A stretch of 64,000 nucleotides of DNA from Parcubacteria group bacterium. GTDB lineage: Bacteria > Patescibacteriota > Minisyncoccia > UBA10092. The notes under the pieces are model-generated. The model was not told the DNA's origin, searched no databases, and worked only from the letters and a program-made list of their open reading frames with translations. The position numbers and the translations under genes are program-made. Positions 7,878-59,540 of the stretch are shown here, piece after piece. Each line of letters starts with the position of its first letter. The first letter of the stretch is position 1. The stretch is taken from NCBI GenBank assembly GCA_016186325.1, contig JACPLW010000012.1, positions 18,644-82,643 of the forward strand, given 5' to 3'.

Positions 7878-8669
7878 ATGCCTTCAAGCCGATACTACCG
7901 TTTCAAAACAGCAGACGAACAAGAAAAGAAAGAGAAATCTAAAACAAGGCTTTTTTGGAGCGCTTTTACGATTGCGTTACTTACAATAATCTGGTCGTTC
8001 TTCATGTCGCCATTTTTAAAAATTACCGAAATCCATATTCCCGAAAACGATGTTGTGACAAAAGAAGACATTAACAGATTAATAGCCGATAGTTTGCCGC
8101 TTAAAATCGGAATAAATATTTTACTTCTTCCGGGCGGCCGCCTTAAGGCGGATATGGCCGCTGCTTTTCCCACCATCACTAACTTAAAGATTAACAAAAA
8201 ATTATTCCACACTGTTGTAATCGGGTTCGAAAAAAGAGTGCAAATCGGATTCTGGTGTAATGAATTAAATTGCTATTCTTTTGATAAAGACGGAATTATT
8301 TTTAAAGAAGCGCCGATAAGCGAGGGATCGCTAATACTTAAAATAAAAGACTTCGAAAAAAAATCTGTTTCGATAGGCGATAAAATTTTGGATGATAGCA
8401 GTTTGAAATTCATTCTTTCTTTCAACGATACGGTGGAAAAATCCGGTCTTTTTAAAATTGGTGAATTTAAAATCAAACCGGCTTCCAATATTGATTTAGA
8501 AGCCGTAGTTGATGGCAATTGGTCTATTTATCTAGACTCGGCGCAAAGTCCGGAAATAGAGGCGTCAAACCTCTTCACGGTTGTAAACGAAGCGCTGAAA
8601 AATAAGTTAAATAGTTTATCCTACATTGACCTAAGAGTTCCCAGCCGGATTTTTTACAAATTAAAATAG
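7878..8669 (+). CDS. ftsQ: cell division protein FtsQ/DivIB-like (POTRA domain)
   Basis: 263 aa; basic N-terminus, single TM, then POTRA-like 'ITEIHIPENDVVTKEDINRLI...IGFEKRVQIGFWCNELNCYSFDKDGIIF'. Confidence 0.55.
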   Translation: MPSSRYYRFKTADEQEKKEKSKTRLFWSAFTIALLTIIWSFFMSPFLKITEIHIPENDVVTKEDINRLIADSLPLKIGINILLLPGGRLKADMAAAFPTITNLKINKKLFHTVVIGFEKRVQIGFWCNELNCYSFDKDGIIFKEAPISEGSLILKIKDFEKKSVSIGDKILDDSSLKFILSFNDTVEKSGLFKIGEFKIKPASNIDLEAVVDGNWSIYLDSAQSPEIEASNLFTVVNEALKNKLNSLSYIDLRVPSRIFYKLK

Positions 8670-8672
8670 CAT

Positions 8673-8700
8673 TTGACAAATCCTGTGGGTTTGATATAAT
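8673..8700 (+). promoter_or_regulatory. consensus sigma70-type promoter TTGACA-N16-TATAAT
   Basis: TTGACA 8673-8678, TATAAT 8695-8700, read directly; no downstream protein gene on this strand. Confidence 0.7.
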
Positions 8701-8706
8701 GAATAA

Positions 8707-8863
8707 TACCGGTTCGGGATGGTCTCGGCCGGATAGAAAAACCTCAGACTCAGAGGAGATCGCTATGAGGGCTCCGCCTTCGTTCGCGTTCGACGCGTCC
8801 CTTTCGTAACACACGTCGGCGCCGTCGGCTACACCCCGTCCCGCAACTGCGGGACGGGGCACT
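8707..8863 (+). ncRNA. candidate small RNA (unknown family), GC-rich, with embedded SD plus 14-codon sORF
   Basis: Bounded by consensus promoter and intrinsic terminator; ~55% GC in ~35% GC genome; GAGGAG then ATG (MRAPPSFAFDASLS*). Confidence 0.4.
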
Positions 8864-8870
8864 TTTTTTA
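8834..8870 (+). terminator. intrinsic terminator (CCCCGTCCCGC aact GCGGGACGGGG + T7)
   Basis: 11-bp perfect stem followed by TTTTTTT read directly. Confidence 0.8.
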
Positions 8871-23283: not shown

Positions 23284-23431
23284 GAAAAATTATTCGCGAA
23301 ACAACGCTGGAAAAGGCAAAACCGCTTTTAGGACAGGAGACAAATGGCGAGCAAGAAAAAATATAGTGGTAAGAGATATAAAAAGCATGCATAGAAGCAA
23401 GTCTCGACTGCCGCAATTAAAATCACAATAA
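23282..23431 (+). CDS. hypothetical very basic 49-aa protein; start codon overlaps right TIR (GGGTGGGGG acts as SD)
   Basis: MKNYSRNNAGKGKTAFRTGDKWRARKN...; below the ORF-track length cutoff. Confidence 0.3.
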   Translation: MKNYSRNNAGKGKTAFRTGDKWRARKNIVVRDIKSMHRSKSRLPQLKSQ

Positions 23432-23438
23432 AAATACC

Positions 23439-24290
23439 ATGGCTATCAAAAAAATAGGCCTAGCTTTAGGCGGCGGGGGAGCAAAAGGGTTTGCTCATAT
23501 TGGCGTTATTAAAGCGCTTGAAGCGGCAGGAATTAATATTGATTATATTGCCGGCACCAGTATGGGGGCTCTTATCGGAGGTTATTACGCCGCGACTAAA
23601 GATATTAAGACGCTTGAAGAATTGTCGCTCGGTATTAAAAAAAGCGACATTTTTCCCATCAGTGAAGTAATCCGCAGAAAAGACGGATCGCTGTTCCGGG
23701 GCGAATCAATAGTAAAACTCCTTGATCATCGCCTGTCTGGCATAAAAATTGAAGATTGTAAAATTCCTTTTACAGCCGTGGCTACTGATTTAAAAACTGG
23801 AGACGAAATAAAACTTAAAAGCGGAAGTTTAACAGACGCGATACGCGCAAGCATTGCCATACCTGTAGTTTTCAGTCCTGTAGAAATAGACGGGAGATTT
23901 CTTATGGACGGCGGCTTTTCAAATCCCGTTCCGGCCGATATCGTTAGAGAAATGGGGGCTGATATTGTAATCGCTGTTGATGTTTCCAGCCGTTGGATTA
24001 TGGCGCCTGACGAAATATTAAACACTCATGATATTTACTCTTTATTCAGTAATGCTTTATCGGTAATCGAGTATCAGCTTGCAAAAAACATTCTTAAAGA
24101 CGCGGATATTGTTATTCGCCCGCCGGTTTTAACCTACGACTGGATGGCATTTGATAAATCGGCCGAGATAATAAAAACCGGCCAAAAAGAACTGGAACTT
24201 AATCTTAAAGAAATAAGAAAAAAAACCGGTCATCATACCCCGCGCCGCACTACCCTTGAAAAGTTTTTTGACTTTATTATAAATAAATAA
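23439..24290 (+). CDS. patatin-like phospholipase
   Basis: 283 aa; 'GGGGAKG', 'GTSMG' (GxSxG), 'DGG'. Confidence 0.9.
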   Translation: MAIKKIGLALGGGGAKGFAHIGVIKALEAAGINIDYIAGTSMGALIGGYYAATKDIKTLEELSLGIKKSDIFPISEVIRRKDGSLFRGESIVKLLDHRLSGIKIEDCKIPFTAVATDLKTGDEIKLKSGSLTDAIRASIAIPVVFSPVEIDGRFLMDGGFSNPVPADIVREMGADIVIAVDVSSRWIMAPDEILNTHDIYSLFSNALSVIEYQLAKNILKDADIVIRPPVLTYDWMAFDKSAEIIKTGQKELELNLKEIRKKTGHHTPRRTTLEKFFDFIINK

Positions 24291-24302
24291 ATAACAATAA
24301 CT

Positions 24303-24917
24303 ATGAAATACGAACTGCCAAAACTGCCATATTCTTACGATGCACTAGAACCTTACATTGACACTAAGACAATGGAAATCCACCATGGAAAACACCATCA
24401 GTTTTATATTGATAAGCTCAACGCTGCTTTGGAAAAATATCCCGATTTAGCCGATAACCCCGCCCTTAAGCTTAAGAGCGGGGATAAAAAACTGGAGGAG
24501 CTTATAAAAGACCTGCCCAATTTAACTATGGTAGACGAAGCCGACAAAAAAGCGATTCATAACAACGGCGGGGGACACATAAACCATTCGTTTTTCTGGC
24601 AAATTATGGCGCCGCAAAAAGAAGTTGATGAAGCATTGTTTGAAGAGATTAAATCAACTTTCGGTTCGCCGGAAGAATTTAAAAAAATATTCAGCAACAC
24701 CGCCGCCACCCACTTTGGCAGCGGATGGGCTTGGCTGGCGCGCGACGAACAAAATAAACTTCAAATATATTCATTGCCAAATCATGATTTTCCTTATTTG
24801 AAAGGCCATCAGCCTCTTATAGTACTTGATCTCTGGGAACACGCCTATTATCTAAAATACCAGAACCGCCGGGCCGAATATATAGAAAATTGGTGGAATG
24901 TTTTGAAGTTATTATAG
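24303..24917 (+). CDS. sodA: Fe/Mn superoxide dismutase
   Basis: 204 aa; 'LPYSYDALEPYID..MEIHHGKHH', 'DLWEHAYY'. Confidence 0.95.
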   Translation: MKYELPKLPYSYDALEPYIDTKTMEIHHGKHHQFYIDKLNAALEKYPDLADNPALKLKSGDKKLEELIKDLPNLTMVDEADKKAIHNNGGGHINHSFFWQIMAPQKEVDEALFEEIKSTFGSPEEFKKIFSNTAATHFGSGWAWLARDEQNKLQIYSLPNHDFPYLKGHQPLIVLDLWEHAYYLKYQNRRAEYIENWWNVLKLL

Positions 24918-24923
24918 GGTTGG

Positions 24924-25041
24924 CCCCGTTAGAAGTCCGACAAGTCGGCAGACGTCGTCGGCGTCTTACTTCTAACGGGGTTGACCCCGTTAGAAGTCCG
25001 ACAAGTCGGCAGACGCCGTCGGCGTCTTACTTCTAACGGGG
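24924..25041. repeat. two tandem 57-bp GC-rich palindromic elements (CCCCGTTAGAAGT..ACTTCTAACGGGG) separated by TTGA
   Basis: Copies 24924-24980 and 24985-25041 differ at one base; second copy abuts the -35 TTGACA of the downstream promoter. Confidence 0.85.
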
Positions 25042-25069
25042 TTGACAGATTATGTAGATTTGATATAAT
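25042..25069 (+). promoter_or_regulatory. consensus promoter TTGACA-N16-TATAAT (near-twin of promoter at 8673)
   Basis: TTGACA 25042-25047, TATAAT 25064-25069; both promoters share 'tttgaTATAATg'. Confidence 0.7.
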
Positions 25070-25075
25070 GTAGGT

Positions 25076-25573
25076 AATGCTGGGAAACAGGCCGAATCCT
25101 GGTTGTAAGACAAGTTTCAGGTGCCTCGAAGAGCATGGACCTATCCCAGCAGCACATTTTTCCTTAACAAAGCCAAAAATCGGCGCGACAGTTCTGTAAC
25201 TGTCCAAATGTGCCGGAGACTAACCTTTGCGGTTTTGCCTCTGTCGCGCCGAACAAAATCCCGTTGCCACTGTCGCTGTCGCGACAGGGGAGACGCCTTC
25301 TTACCTAGCGTCTCGTGAAGCAACGGAACTAAAGTCCTGGCCACATGTCCATGCGGGGTTGGTGGTCCAGGAGCGGTGCCCTATCGCCACAAGTGAGATG
25401 GGCAAACCGATGGTAGTGAGCCTCTCGGTTAGTAATTCAACTCCTTCGCTGTTGACCTATGGTCCACGGTGAATGCGCCTCTTGGCACACCCGTGTAAAG
25501 GATGGCCGCCATGTGCCGTCTAACAGCGAAGATCGTTCCTGCCTGCGCGAGCTCACCGCGCAGGCCTTTTTTT
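25076..25573 (+). ncRNA. candidate ~500-nt structured non-coding RNA of unknown family
   Basis: GC-rich (~55%) island with multiple long-range complementary segments (TCGGCGCGACAG/CTGTCGCGCCGA, CCGTTGC/GCAACGG, GAGACGC/GCGTCTC), no convincing ORF, promoter and terminator on + strand. Confidence 0.5.
25541..25573 (+). terminator. intrinsic terminator GCCTGCGCG agctcacc GCGCAGGC + T7
   Basis: Read directly. Confidence 0.8.
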
Positions 25574-25633
25574 ATTCTTCTTAAAGAAGAATAACCCTTC
25601 CGTAGCCCCGCTTTTCGGGGCGAAGGAGGGTAC

Positions 25634-26491
25634 TCAACTATTTAATATACTTCCAACAAAATCTCTGTGGCCGTTTAGAAATTCTTCGGCAGTCAATATT
25701 TTTCCGCCCTCAAGTTGAAGTTTTTTTATAATTAAAATATTTTTGCCACATTTAATTATGATGTCGCTATTTTTCAGAAAAATTTCACCCTGCCTGCCGG
25801 CAGGCAGGCGATTTTTATTGTTACTATCATAAAAAATATCCGCTTCTATTATTTTTAAACTTTTACCATTCCACATTGTCCAAGCGCTTGGCCACGGATA
25901 ATAGCCCCTGGTCATTCTTTCAATCTCGCCTGCGCTTTTTGTCCAATCAATTTTTCCGTCTTCTTTTTTTATAATTTTAGTATAAGTCGCTTTCGAATGC
26001 TCTTGTTCAATCGGCTTAATTTTTCCTGAAATATAATCGGGAATAGTTTTTATCAAAAGCTCCGCCCCTATTTCGGCAAGTTTTTTAGAAAGAGTTTCAT
26101 AACTATCTGATTTAGAAATTAGAAATTTGGACTTAGAAATTATCGCCCCGTGGTCCATTTCTTCATCAATTTTTATTATAGTTACGCCCGTTTCTTTTTC
26201 ACCGTTTAAAATAGCCGACTGAATCGGCGAAGCGCCGCGGTATTTTGGAAGTAGCGATGGATGAACATTAATAAAACCATAGCGGGGGATATCTAAAATT
26301 TCTTTTGGCAAAATCTTTCCGTAAGCCGCTATTAAGCCCAGATCCGGCTTTAAATCTTTTAGTTTTTCTATTAAAACAGAAACCGATTCCTTAGGGTCGC
26401 GAAACATGGCTTGCGGTTCAAGCCCTGATTTTATTAACTTTTCCAAAATTATCGTCGCAAATTCCGGCGTCCCAAAAAATATAAATTTCAT
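25634..26491 (-). CDS. fmt: methionyl-tRNA formyltransferase
   Basis: 285 aa; 'FFGTPEFA', 'NVHPSLLPKYRGASPIQ'; contains 20-bp perfect palindrome CCTGCCTGCCGGCAGGCAGG at 25789-25808 (encodes 'LPAGRQG'). Confidence 0.9.
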   Translation of the reverse strand: MKFIFFGTPEFATIILEKLIKSGLEPQAMFRDPKESVSVLIEKLKDLKPDLGLIAAYGKILPKEILDIPRYGFINVHPSLLPKYRGASPIQSAILNGEKETGVTIIKIDEEMDHGAIISKSKFLISKSDSYETLSKKLAEIGAELLIKTIPDYISGKIKPIEQEHSKATYTKIIKKEDGKIDWTKSAGEIERMTRGYYPWPSAWTMWNGKSLKIIEADIFYDSNNKNRLPAGRQGEIFLKNSDIIIKCGKNILIIKKLQLEGGKILTAEEFLNGHRDFVGSILNS

Positions 26492-59204: not shown

Positions 59205-59540
59205 GGCAGGTGAAAGGAAACTATAAGCCGGATTCTGTCCCCGCAACTGCGGGGGACGATTATCTATCTGAGCTCTGCATTGCTGCCGAGCTTTAGCCCT
59301 CATAACGAGGTTGCACCCAGTAAGGATTTAGCCGTTTCACTTCCATATTTCTATGGAATTCACCCTGCAAATGCGGGGTGCCTTGCGCCTTTCGGCGCCC
59401 GGCGTCGCTGTTCGCACCTCTCGCGTTATTTATTTCGCGGCGGGTCGTTAACCCGTACGCTTTTCCCCCGCAACTGCGGGGTGGTGTCCGGACTTTCCTC
59501 CCCTCGATAAACTCAGGGCAATCGTCCGTTTCCTTAATTA
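59205..59540 (-). ncRNA. rnpB: RNase P RNA (bacterial type A)
   Basis: Minus strand shows CR-I 'GGAGGAAAGUCCGGAC' and CR-V 'ACAGAAUCCGGCUUAUAG' (P4 halves complementary), 3' tail 'GUUUCCUUUCACCU' pairing with 5' 'AGGAAAC'. Confidence 0.85.

Follow-up and report, generated by a model that had tools for sequence, protein, structure and literature searches.

The stretch analysed here is 64,000 nt of contig JACPLW010000012.1 from a Parcubacteria group bacterium (hereafter, the window, to which all coordinates refer). Between the genes sodA and fmt it contains a GC-rich segment of about 500 nt that had been proposed, from inspection of the letters, to be a structured non-coding RNA (ncRNA). The sodA gene lies upstream on the same strand (24303–24917, +), and fmt (25634–26491), followed by def, lies on the opposite strand, with both of these genes converging on the RNA gene and the 3' end of fmt located only ~60 nt beyond the RNA terminator. 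Judging from its sequence and that of its homologues, this segment is a real non-coding, structured gene on the plus strand, with its own predicted promoter and terminator, and it represents a new family, namely a lineage-specific structured ncRNA gene outside every named family. The principal features of the gene are the following.

25042–25069 (+): predicted promoter, with the -35 box TTGACA at 25042–25047, a 16-nt spacer and TATAAT at 25064–25069
25076–25573 (+): predicted transcript of ~498 nt, delimited by the geometry of promoter and terminator
25328–25573 (+): conserved core of the family, shared by all homologues (~245 nt, ~200 consensus positions)
25541–25573 (+): intrinsic terminator, hairpin GCCUGCGCG-AGCUCAC-CGCGCAGGC followed by a U-run

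The consensus promoter TTGACA-N16-TATAAT named in the original prediction is borne out by a match at 12 of 12 positions, complemented by a TG extended -10 element (TGATATAAT at 25061–25069). It is the single 12/12 site between 24000 and 26500, and the entire 64 kb hold two such sites compared to 0.05 expected. A promoter of this kind suggests high, constitutive expression, and by its spacing from the -10 box the transcript would start at A25076 or A25077. The terminator, described in the same prediction as a textbook one, indeed consists of a 9-bp hairpin with 8 GC pairs (GCCTGCGCG-AGCTCAC-CGCGCAGGC in the DNA, 25541–25565) that is followed by the T-run CTTTTTTT. Structured RNA genes in AT-rich genomes usually stand out by high GC content. 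The predicted GC content of ~55% for the RNA holds (54.6%), whereas the background of ~35% was set too low, the value for the window being 39.1%. In 200-nt windows, GC content is 0.52–0.575 inside the RNA region compared to 0.30–0.45 in the flanks, and no other 500 nt of the window are as GC-rich, the tRNA clusters ranking next. As had been noted, no gene follows downstream on the strand of the RNA; the next gene is fmt, on the opposite strand. The open reading frames (ORFs) within the region are short and have no initiation signals, in agreement with the earlier statement that none is preceded by a Shine-Dalgarno (SD) sequence.

Homologues and the conserved core

Homologues were gathered from the contigs of fmt/sodA relatives and by two DNA-pattern scans. 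This search, which had been suggested as a check of the candidate RNA, recovered 11 distinct versions (in L032, the contig edge removes the 3' end), all from metagenomes of Azambacteria-like Parcubacteria, a small group of ultra-small groundwater bacteria; the fmt homologues also place the host in the Parcubacteria group near Candidatus Azambacteria. The nhmmer E-values of the homologues range from 1e-38 to 6e-07, and the covariance-model scores are 130–209 bits in 10 loci. Identical sequences were found at several loci, so that the distinct versions are represented as follows.

Window = L001
L003 = L004 = L029
L005 = L018
L007 = L008 = L009 = L028
L023 = L030
L031 = L034–L036, from the Azambacteria RIFCSPHIGHO2_01_FULL_40_24 genome
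L006, L020, L022, L027 and L032, each without listed duplicates

The neighbours at every locus are patatin, sodA, fmt, def, a PDZ protease, L9 and L27, and every homologue lies in the interval that separates the sodA stop codon from the 3' end of fmt. A near-invariant 28–29-nt promoter (TTGACAGATTMTGTRGRTTTGATATAATG), spacer included, precedes each of them, and each ends with GCCTGCGCGAGCTCACCGCGCAGGCC-T(n), the contig-limited L032 aside. In the relatives, the sodA stop codon is located ~5–8 nt from TTGACA, and there is no terminator between the stop codon and the -35 box. The adjacent fmt proteins are only 68–77% identical, and the DNA past the terminator is unalignable; it is thus selection, rather than recency of divergence, that maintains the promoter and the terminator. 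The RNAs themselves vary considerably in length: ~180–206 nt in L006, ~290 nt in L003, 340–400 nt in L020, L007, L031 and L032, and 430–510 nt in the longest versions, those of L005, L023, the window and L022.

The family is narrow in range, having been found so far, by these sequence searches, only in the Azambacteria-like clade of Parcubacteria. The scan of genome_contigs (185,579 species representatives; pattern GCTCACT..TYRCCCRTCYC..GCGRTAG) yielded one true match, identical to L005, and six matches in unrelated phyla, which we reject as chance occurrences given the lack of an Rfam RNA at the site and their negative result with the covariance model R1. With a relaxed pattern, the metagenome scan gave six true matches and one chance match, and the viral scan gave none; the patterns demand three conserved blocks, and more diverged relatives would escape them. 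A covariance-model search detected no second copy of the RNA in the window or in the fetched loci, and blastn against phage and plasmid collections gave no match.

The part of the RNA common to all homologues is the 3' core, which in the window matches the model R1 over positions 1–200 (149.9 bits, E = 2e-38). It is predicted to consist of the following elements, in addition to the terminator hairpin.

25335–25372 (+): P1 hairpin, UCCUGGCCAC ... GUGGUCCAGGA
25378–25403 (+): P2 hairpin, GCCC-UA-UCGCC ... GUGA-GAU-GGGC
25406–25429 (+): P3 hairpin, with the invariant loop AGUGAGC at 25415–25421
25430–25443 (+): J3/4 junction UAGUAAUUCAACUC, kept in most homologues and unpaired in the consensus
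25444–25453 with 25522–25531 (+): P4, CUUCGCUGUU with AACAGCGAAG, a 10/10 inverted repeat
25454–25464 (+): P5, GACCUAUGGUC, enclosed by P4
25465–25521 (+): window-specific 57-nt insertion within P4

Pairs were counted in an alignment fitted to the model, which comprises 10–11 related sequences of one narrow clade. In 10 sequences, 93.3% of the 464 cells are standard pairs, and double changes occur in 20 of the 49 pairs, compared to 7.9±2.0 in column shuffles (none of 500 shuffles reached 20) and to 1–7 in controls in which the partners were slid by 1–3 columns. RNAalifold, run independently on a MAFFT alignment, recovered the same helices. Stem by stem, the counts are as follows: P1 (A4 helices 1–2) has 92% and 83% of its cells paired and double changes in 6 pairs; P2 (A4 helices 3–4) has 100% and 90% paired, with the 2x3 internal loop UA/GAU invariant in 10 sequences; the P3 stem (A4 helix 5) has 98.6% paired and double changes in 6 of 8 pairs; P4 and P5 (A4 helices 6–7) have 92% and 76% paired and double changes in 5 pairs; and the terminator stem is 100% paired, with 2 compensatory pairs. 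The junction between P3 and P4 is conserved and reads AGUAAUUCAAC. In other lineages, P4 takes the form CUCCGCCG/CGGCGGAG or CUCCCCCCGG/CCGGGAGGAG, and the P4/P5 domain is missing in L003 only, being present in all other full-length copies. Two candidate elements of this region were rejected. The CUCCUUC sequence of P4, considered as a free seed resembling an anti-SD sequence, forms the 5' side of a helix that covaries. A helix GGCAC/GUGCC between the 5' leader and J1-2, seen in the minimum free energy (MFE) folds of L006 and L031, is inconsistent across lineages, and it may lie before the transcription start.

The MFE z-score is -4.3 for the RNA strand and -5.1 for the reverse strand; because the reverse strand folds too, folding energy alone does not identify the transcribed strand. 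The plus strand was assigned from the orientation of the promoter and of the U-run and from the many G-U and U-G pairs, which would be A-C mismatches on the reverse strand. With respect to coding, of the 339 pairwise indel runs, 285 have lengths not divisible by 3 and 54 are in-frame, the variable columns are spread evenly over the three phases (41/43/43), and there is no conserved ORF, the longest ORFs varying in strand and frame between lineages. The interpretation of this segment as a structured ncRNA, for which a coding signature in place of compensatory changes had been named as the contrary outcome, is thus upheld: compensatory changes are present, and neither the indels nor the phases carry such a signature. 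Public gene calls do overlap the RNA (86 aa in L034, 3614–3874; 107 aa in L005, 10867–11190; 91 aa in L004, 10334–10609). These calls fall within the RNA gene or on its antisense strand, vary from lineage to lineage in orientation, frame and length, and, on this evidence, are almost certainly spurious.

Variable 5' half, deletions and duplications

The 5' half of the window RNA (25076–25327, ~250 nt) is outside the universal core and is predicted to comprise three domains and a linker.

25079–25150 (+): D1, stem-loop of type A, closed by GCUGGGA/UCCCAGC in the MFE fold
25157–25181 (+): linker UUUUUCCUUAACAAAGCCAAAAAUC, predicted single-stranded in the MFE and centroid folds
25180–25252 (+): D2 hairpin, base stem UCGGCGCGACAG/CUGUCGCGCCGA, a 12/12 inverted repeat also present in the MFE fold
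25261–25326 (+): D3, three-way junction, CCGUUGC/GCAACGG around CUGUCGC/GCGACAG and GAGACGC/GCGUCUC

The long-range complementary segments that had been picked out by eye belong to these domains and are genuine. The pair TCGGCGCGACAG/CTGTCGCGCCGA matches at 12 of 12 positions, and CCGTTGC/GCAACGG and GAGACGC/GCGTCTC form, together with CTGTCGC/GCGACAG, the three-way junction of the MFE fold, which is kept in two other lineages. Specifically, D3 is kept in L022/L023 and in L024, with 3 of its 23 pairs compensatory in three sequences. The D2 hairpin of L022/L023 differs from that of the window by three compensatory pairs in its base stem, which reads UCUGCGCAACC/GGUUGCGCAGA, and D2 is absent from the medium and short forms of the RNA. 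The closing helix UGCUG/CAGCA of D1 is invariant in five type A homologues, the interior being unalignable; other lineages possess an unrelated D1 of type B (GGUGG...CCACC), and L006 lacks D1. The linker at 25157–25181 is kept in the window, L005, L007, L020, L022, L023, L031 and L032. D2 and D3 sit inside an A-rich linker, with a copy of AAAAUC before each. From these comparisons, the 5' half is structured and under selection where it is present and optional for the family; the 5' region is modular, being absent, replaced or expanded by lineage, with the window carrying one of the longest versions.

A pair of loci from co-occurring strains of one Hainich groundwater well, L022 (1425–2080) and L023 (1375–1990), illustrates the exchange of such modules. 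They encode identical fmt proteins and are identical in the RNA from the linker to the terminator, and they differ in D1 (type B versus type A), in the -10 box (TACAAT versus TATACT) and in the 3' end of sodA. This mosaic implies a recombination breakpoint within the RNA gene at the conserved linker, which, as far as sequence comparison can tell, appears to be a recombination joint.

Sequence comparison also indicates that the RNA is dispensable in some close relatives, where it is deleted or truncated. L025 and L026 (3840–4005) retain sodA, and their promoter is joined to the last ~18 nt of the gene and the terminator. In L024 (3895–4335), nothing but the last codons remains of sodA, and truncation of the RNA has fused CCCUA of P2 to the terminator loop. 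In L010–L012, which have 58–61% fmt identity, the site contains neither sodA nor the RNA, and model R1 gave no match in the fetched flanks. L025, L026 and L024 are natural deletion variants, that is, useful knock-outs for comparison. Finally, the reverse strand of L027 (1–900) contains a local duplication that consists of the 3' end of sodA, the promoter, an RNA with D1 only and a different terminator (GCCCGCGCGGAATATTGCGCGGGC); it continues with a remnant of the fmt 3' coding sequence, a slightly degenerate promoter (TTGATA...TAATATAAT), a full-length RNA and fmt.

Relationships to known RNAs and possible functions

The window was searched with cmscan against all 4227 families of Rfam 15 at gathering thresholds, and the RNA itself at E<=10 with relaxed filters. 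The relaxed search included, besides the window copy, the homologues L006 (206 nt) and L031 (372 nt), because the large insertions of the window copy could break the alignment to a model. At gathering thresholds, no family matched the RNA, and rRNA, RNase P RNA and tRNAs were found elsewhere in the window; at E<=10, the three length variants matched only terminator look-alikes (OmrA-B, isrK) and, by chance, miRNA models, at 22.6 bits or less. ARAGORN predicted no tmRNA in the window, and no tRNA-like domain or tag. The original prediction had reported no signature of RNase P RNA, tmRNA, SRP RNA or 6S RNA and had named a search against Rfam as its check; Rfam and ARAGORN concur with it, and a match to a known family is absent at both thresholds. 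It had also located rnpB elsewhere in the window, and RNase P RNA of class A is indeed encoded at 59208–59537 (-), where it scores 106.2 bits against a gathering score of 100, with several non-canonical or missing elements, which illustrates how diverged the stable RNAs of this lineage are. Our search of the literature on structured ncRNAs of the candidate phyla radiation (CPR), Patescibacteria and Parcubacteria found no description of such an RNA.

Several identities were considered specifically and rejected. For SRP RNA, the models gave no match to any of the three variants at E<=10, and close relatives have lost the gene or carry a truncated form. The tmRNA identity is contradicted by the lack of an ARAGORN prediction and of any tmRNA family at E<=10. 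As for 6S RNA, the MFE and centroid folds of the variants of 206, 372 and 500 nt show multiple hairpins and not an end-to-end rod, and RF00013 gave no match. The RNA does resemble 6S RNA in being non-essential, probably abundant, ~200 nt in its core size and preceded by a strong sigma70 promoter, but the rod with a central bubble that defines 6S RNA is missing. A riboswitch is not indicated either: no ORF follows on the strand and no known class matches, and we noticed no closing P1 helix and no obvious alternative pairing of the aptamer/anti-terminator type, although no systematic search of alternatives was made. RNAs of mobile or guide systems (omega-RNA, bridge RNA, retron, CRISPR/TIGR) were dismissed for want of an adjacent effector gene and of a repeat-spacer array.

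The raiA motif, OLE, ROOL, GOLLD and HEARO are orphan structured ncRNA classes that were found as GC-rich intergenic regions. None of the Rfam models for OLE, GOLLD, ROOL, raiA and HEARO matched the RNA; accordingly, of the two options offered originally, a large ornate class or a lineage-specific RNA, the second stands and the first does not, as far as the Rfam models of such classes can show. The present RNA shares with the orphan classes the stand-alone GC-rich gene, several covarying helices and invariant loops and junctions. It differs from them in its smaller core (~200 nt), which is a string of hairpins and not a large multi-junction fold, and in its far narrower range, without association with phages, tRNA or mobile elements.

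Overall, we consider it probable that the locus is best explained as an independent structured ncRNA gene of a new family with a presumed role in trans. As to the kind of that role, we tentatively favour, without great confidence, a trans-acting RNA that binds protein, serves as a scaffold or acts as a sponge. Such an RNA would be abundant and stable and would act in trans through its invariant loops and junctions, and not as an antisense RNA. Recognition by shape is suggested by the placement of invariant bases in loops, the internal loop and junctions between covarying stems; by the hairpin-string architecture without a closing helix; and by the search for pairing targets, in which no complement of the linkers was found in the 64 kb and pairing with sodA is at the level of shuffled controls in six of seven lineages. 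The P3 loop (GUGAGC) may kiss the terminator loop (GCUCAC, 25551–25556) in a proposed 6-bp contact, which would fold the 3' end onto the core, compacting the core and shielding the 3' end. The complementarity over 6 bp is present in nine of nine complete sequences, with both loops invariant, and a 6-bp match among conserved loops has a chance expectation of ~1% by a rough estimate. The 5' domains would then be peripheral additions, modulating stability or providing further binding sites.

Several observations weigh against this interpretation. The invariance of the two loops leaves the kissing contact without covariation, and the extra U in the terminator loop of L006 would force a one-base bulge. 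The gene neighbourhood suggests no partner protein. The search for complements covered the 64-kb window, leaving room for base-pairing through short seeds. The loss in L025/L026, the truncation in L024 and the absence from L010–L012 show that the function is not indispensable. Moreover, the transcript ends and the abundance of the RNA are deduced from sequence signals, and the covariation statistics, obtained from a narrow clade, are supportive, amounting to good support of a grade below R-scape proof.

The closest functional analogy is RsaC of Staphylococcus aureus, a long small RNA (sRNA) that controls sodA and combines a 5' part varying between isolates with a conserved, independent 3' part (PMC6765141). 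According to the same account, RsaC is released from the mntABC 3' untranslated region (3'UTR) by processing and pairs with the ribosome-binding site of sodA (PMC6765141). The likeness lies in the unusual length, the functional and genomic link to superoxide dismutase and oxidative stress and the location at the 3' terminus of a protein-coding unit. The two RNAs are not homologous, as judged by the lack of an Rfam match. The present RNA differs in having a dedicated consensus promoter and in sitting 3' of sodA itself, in the lack of detected sodA complementarity and in that its 5' variation involves different structured domains and not repeat copy number.

A second comparison is with sRNAs of the type-I 3'UTR kind, such as DapZ and MicL, which are transcribed from a promoter of their own close to the end of the preceding coding sequence. 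These sRNAs are ~80–300 nt long, depend on Hfq and have a clear seed. Here too, the promoter abuts the upstream stop codon (at ~5–8 nt in the relatives) and the terminator is shared with the upstream gene, but the present RNA is 180–500 nt long and highly structured, with no seed or target detected.

By analogy with these systems, the RNA could be a long base-pairing sRNA, of the RsaC or the type-I 3'UTR kind, produced from its own promoter and by sodA read-through, with the linkers UUCCUUAACAAAGCC and AGUAAUUCAACUC pairing with transcripts that take part in the response to oxidative stress or metals, perhaps including that of sodA. The RNA is always co-oriented with sodA and directly 3' of it, with no terminator between them in the relatives; the conserved pyrimidine- and A-rich linkers are predicted to be unpaired; the loss of sodA in L024 coincides with truncation of the RNA; and the combination of a variable 5' part, a conserved 3' part and a sodA link recalls RsaC (PMC6765141). 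We nevertheless regard this reading as rather unlikely. The conserved linkers have no complementary site with four or fewer mismatches in the 64-kb window. Duplex energies with the sodA initiation region (-40 to +30) are close to those of shuffled controls in six of seven lineages, L007 being the exception, and the predicted sites are not conserved; antisense action of the linkers on sodA or on targets within the window received no support. Most of the invariant bases reside in structured loops and not in one seed, L025/L026 retain sodA without the RNA, and sodA and its neighbours possess no SD for a C/U-rich seed to mask: the regions upstream of sodA (24263–24302) and of the patatin-like gene (23399–23438) are A/T-rich, with no recognisable SD. 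An element acting in cis is less probable still. It would be a terminator module of the sodA 3'UTR or a riboswitch-like sensor whose fold, including the contact between the P3 and terminator loops, would set the efficiency of termination and through it the stability of the sodA mRNA or the extent of antisense transcription running into fmt-def. The RNA and sodA have a common terminator, which persists in L025 despite the deletion of the RNA, the core lies directly upstream of the terminator with a loop complementary to the terminator loop, and fmt converges only ~60 nt downstream. However, the near-invariant promoter that separates the RNA from sodA in all lineages favours independent expression, neither a closing P1 helix nor an obvious alternative pairing was noticed, no riboswitch family matches, nothing follows on the strand to be regulated, and the loop–loop contact is possible only once the terminator hairpin exists.

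The remaining alternatives seem highly improbable. A strongly diverged 6S RNA, tmRNA or SRP RNA, missed in CPR by the covariance models, would fit the strong, constitutive-looking promoter typical of stable RNAs, the failure to detect any of the three in the window and the precedent of the RNase P RNA, which barely passes its threshold (106 versus 100 bits) and indicates that CPR RNAs can diverge. Against this stand the lack of any Rfam match at E<=10 in the three length variants, of a tRNA-like domain by ARAGORN and of an end-to-end rod with a central bubble, as well as the deletion, truncation or absence of the gene in relatives, which is unlike SRP RNA and tmRNA; besides, the window is a fraction of the genome, and missing housekeeping RNAs mean little. 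We attach just as little probability to a segment without RNA function, that is, a gene for a small protein or left-over GC-rich DNA of foreign or mobile origin. Gene callers do place ORFs of 86 aa (L034–L036), 107 aa (L005) and 91 aa (L004) here, the composition differs from that of the host, and local duplication, deletion and domain swapping are evident. Yet the called ORFs are inconsistent between lineages, most indels have lengths that are not divisible by 3, and no third-position pattern is seen; compensatory changes keep the helices, and the promoter and terminator are strongly conserved; searches of the phage and plasmid collections and of viral contigs yielded no match; and high GC content is a usual mark of structured RNA, the tRNA clusters being next in the window. 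The rest of the probability falls to an explanation not yet considered.

Returning to the trans-acting structured RNA, a bolder version of it can be put forward as speculation that is unlikely to hold in full: a new modular RNA class of Azambacteria-like CPR, in which the core (the UA/GAU loop of P2, the contact of P3 with the terminator, and J3/4) would adopt a specific 3D fold with a job of its own, either with a CPR-specific ribonucleoprotein partner or as a sensor or catalyst connected with oxidative stress or metal handling beside sodA, the 5' domains would be lineage adaptors, and the twin promoter at 8673 described below would mark a small regulon of unannotated stable RNAs of this kind.

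The genomes of CPR/Patescibacteria are extremely reduced, and the organisms are almost entirely uncultured; to our knowledge, very few ncRNAs beyond rRNA, tRNA and RNase P RNA have been described in them. The narrow range and the dispensability of the present family limit its general importance. Its value lies in a usable covariance model, in the correction of public annotation, where 'hypothetical protein' calls overlap the gene, and in a tractable case of gain, swap and loss of peripheral domains over short evolutionary distances. If the sodA link or the RNA behind the twin promoter at 8673 is functional, they would also open a view on RNA-based regulation where none is known.

Flanking hairpins and the 8673 region

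The intervals on either side of the RNA gene contain additional hairpins that are outside the RNA family.

24917–25038 (+): two tandem 61-nt hairpin repeats, 97% identical, in the interval from the sodA stop codon to the -35 box

These repeats are window-specific, with none in the relatives and no further copy in the window. Each forms a long imperfect hairpin, re-creating GGGTTGAC. They could have arisen by tandem duplication or represent a small insertion element, and they might act as a terminator or insulator for sodA. On the other side, the interval from the RNA terminator to the fmt stop codon contains the hairpin CCCUUCCGUAGCCCCGCUUUUCGGGGCGAAGGAGGG (25598–25630). On the minus strand, it is followed by a U-rich run and is thus probably the terminator of fmt-def; it is also kept in L002 and L005. 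The GCGAAGGAG arm of this hairpin is complementary to the 5' strand of P4, CUCCUUCGC.

The second of the two perfect promoters in the window (TTGACAAATCCTGTGGGTTTGATATAAT) is located at 8673 (+) and abuts the stop codon of the ORF 7878–8669. Its spacer resembles that of the RNA gene, and TGTRGRTTTGATATAAT occurs at these two sites of the window only. This promoter is followed by ~165 nt of GC-rich sequence and then by a strong terminator, CCCCGTCCCGCAACTGCGGGACGGGG with T7 (region 8673–8870). The RNA predicted at 8701–8870 has an MFE z-score of -3.9 and no Rfam match at E<=10, and the region includes GGAG-N7-AUG with a 14-codon ORF (MRAPPSFAFDASLS). It is probably another unannotated gene, for a small RNA or a micro-ORF, with the same type of promoter.

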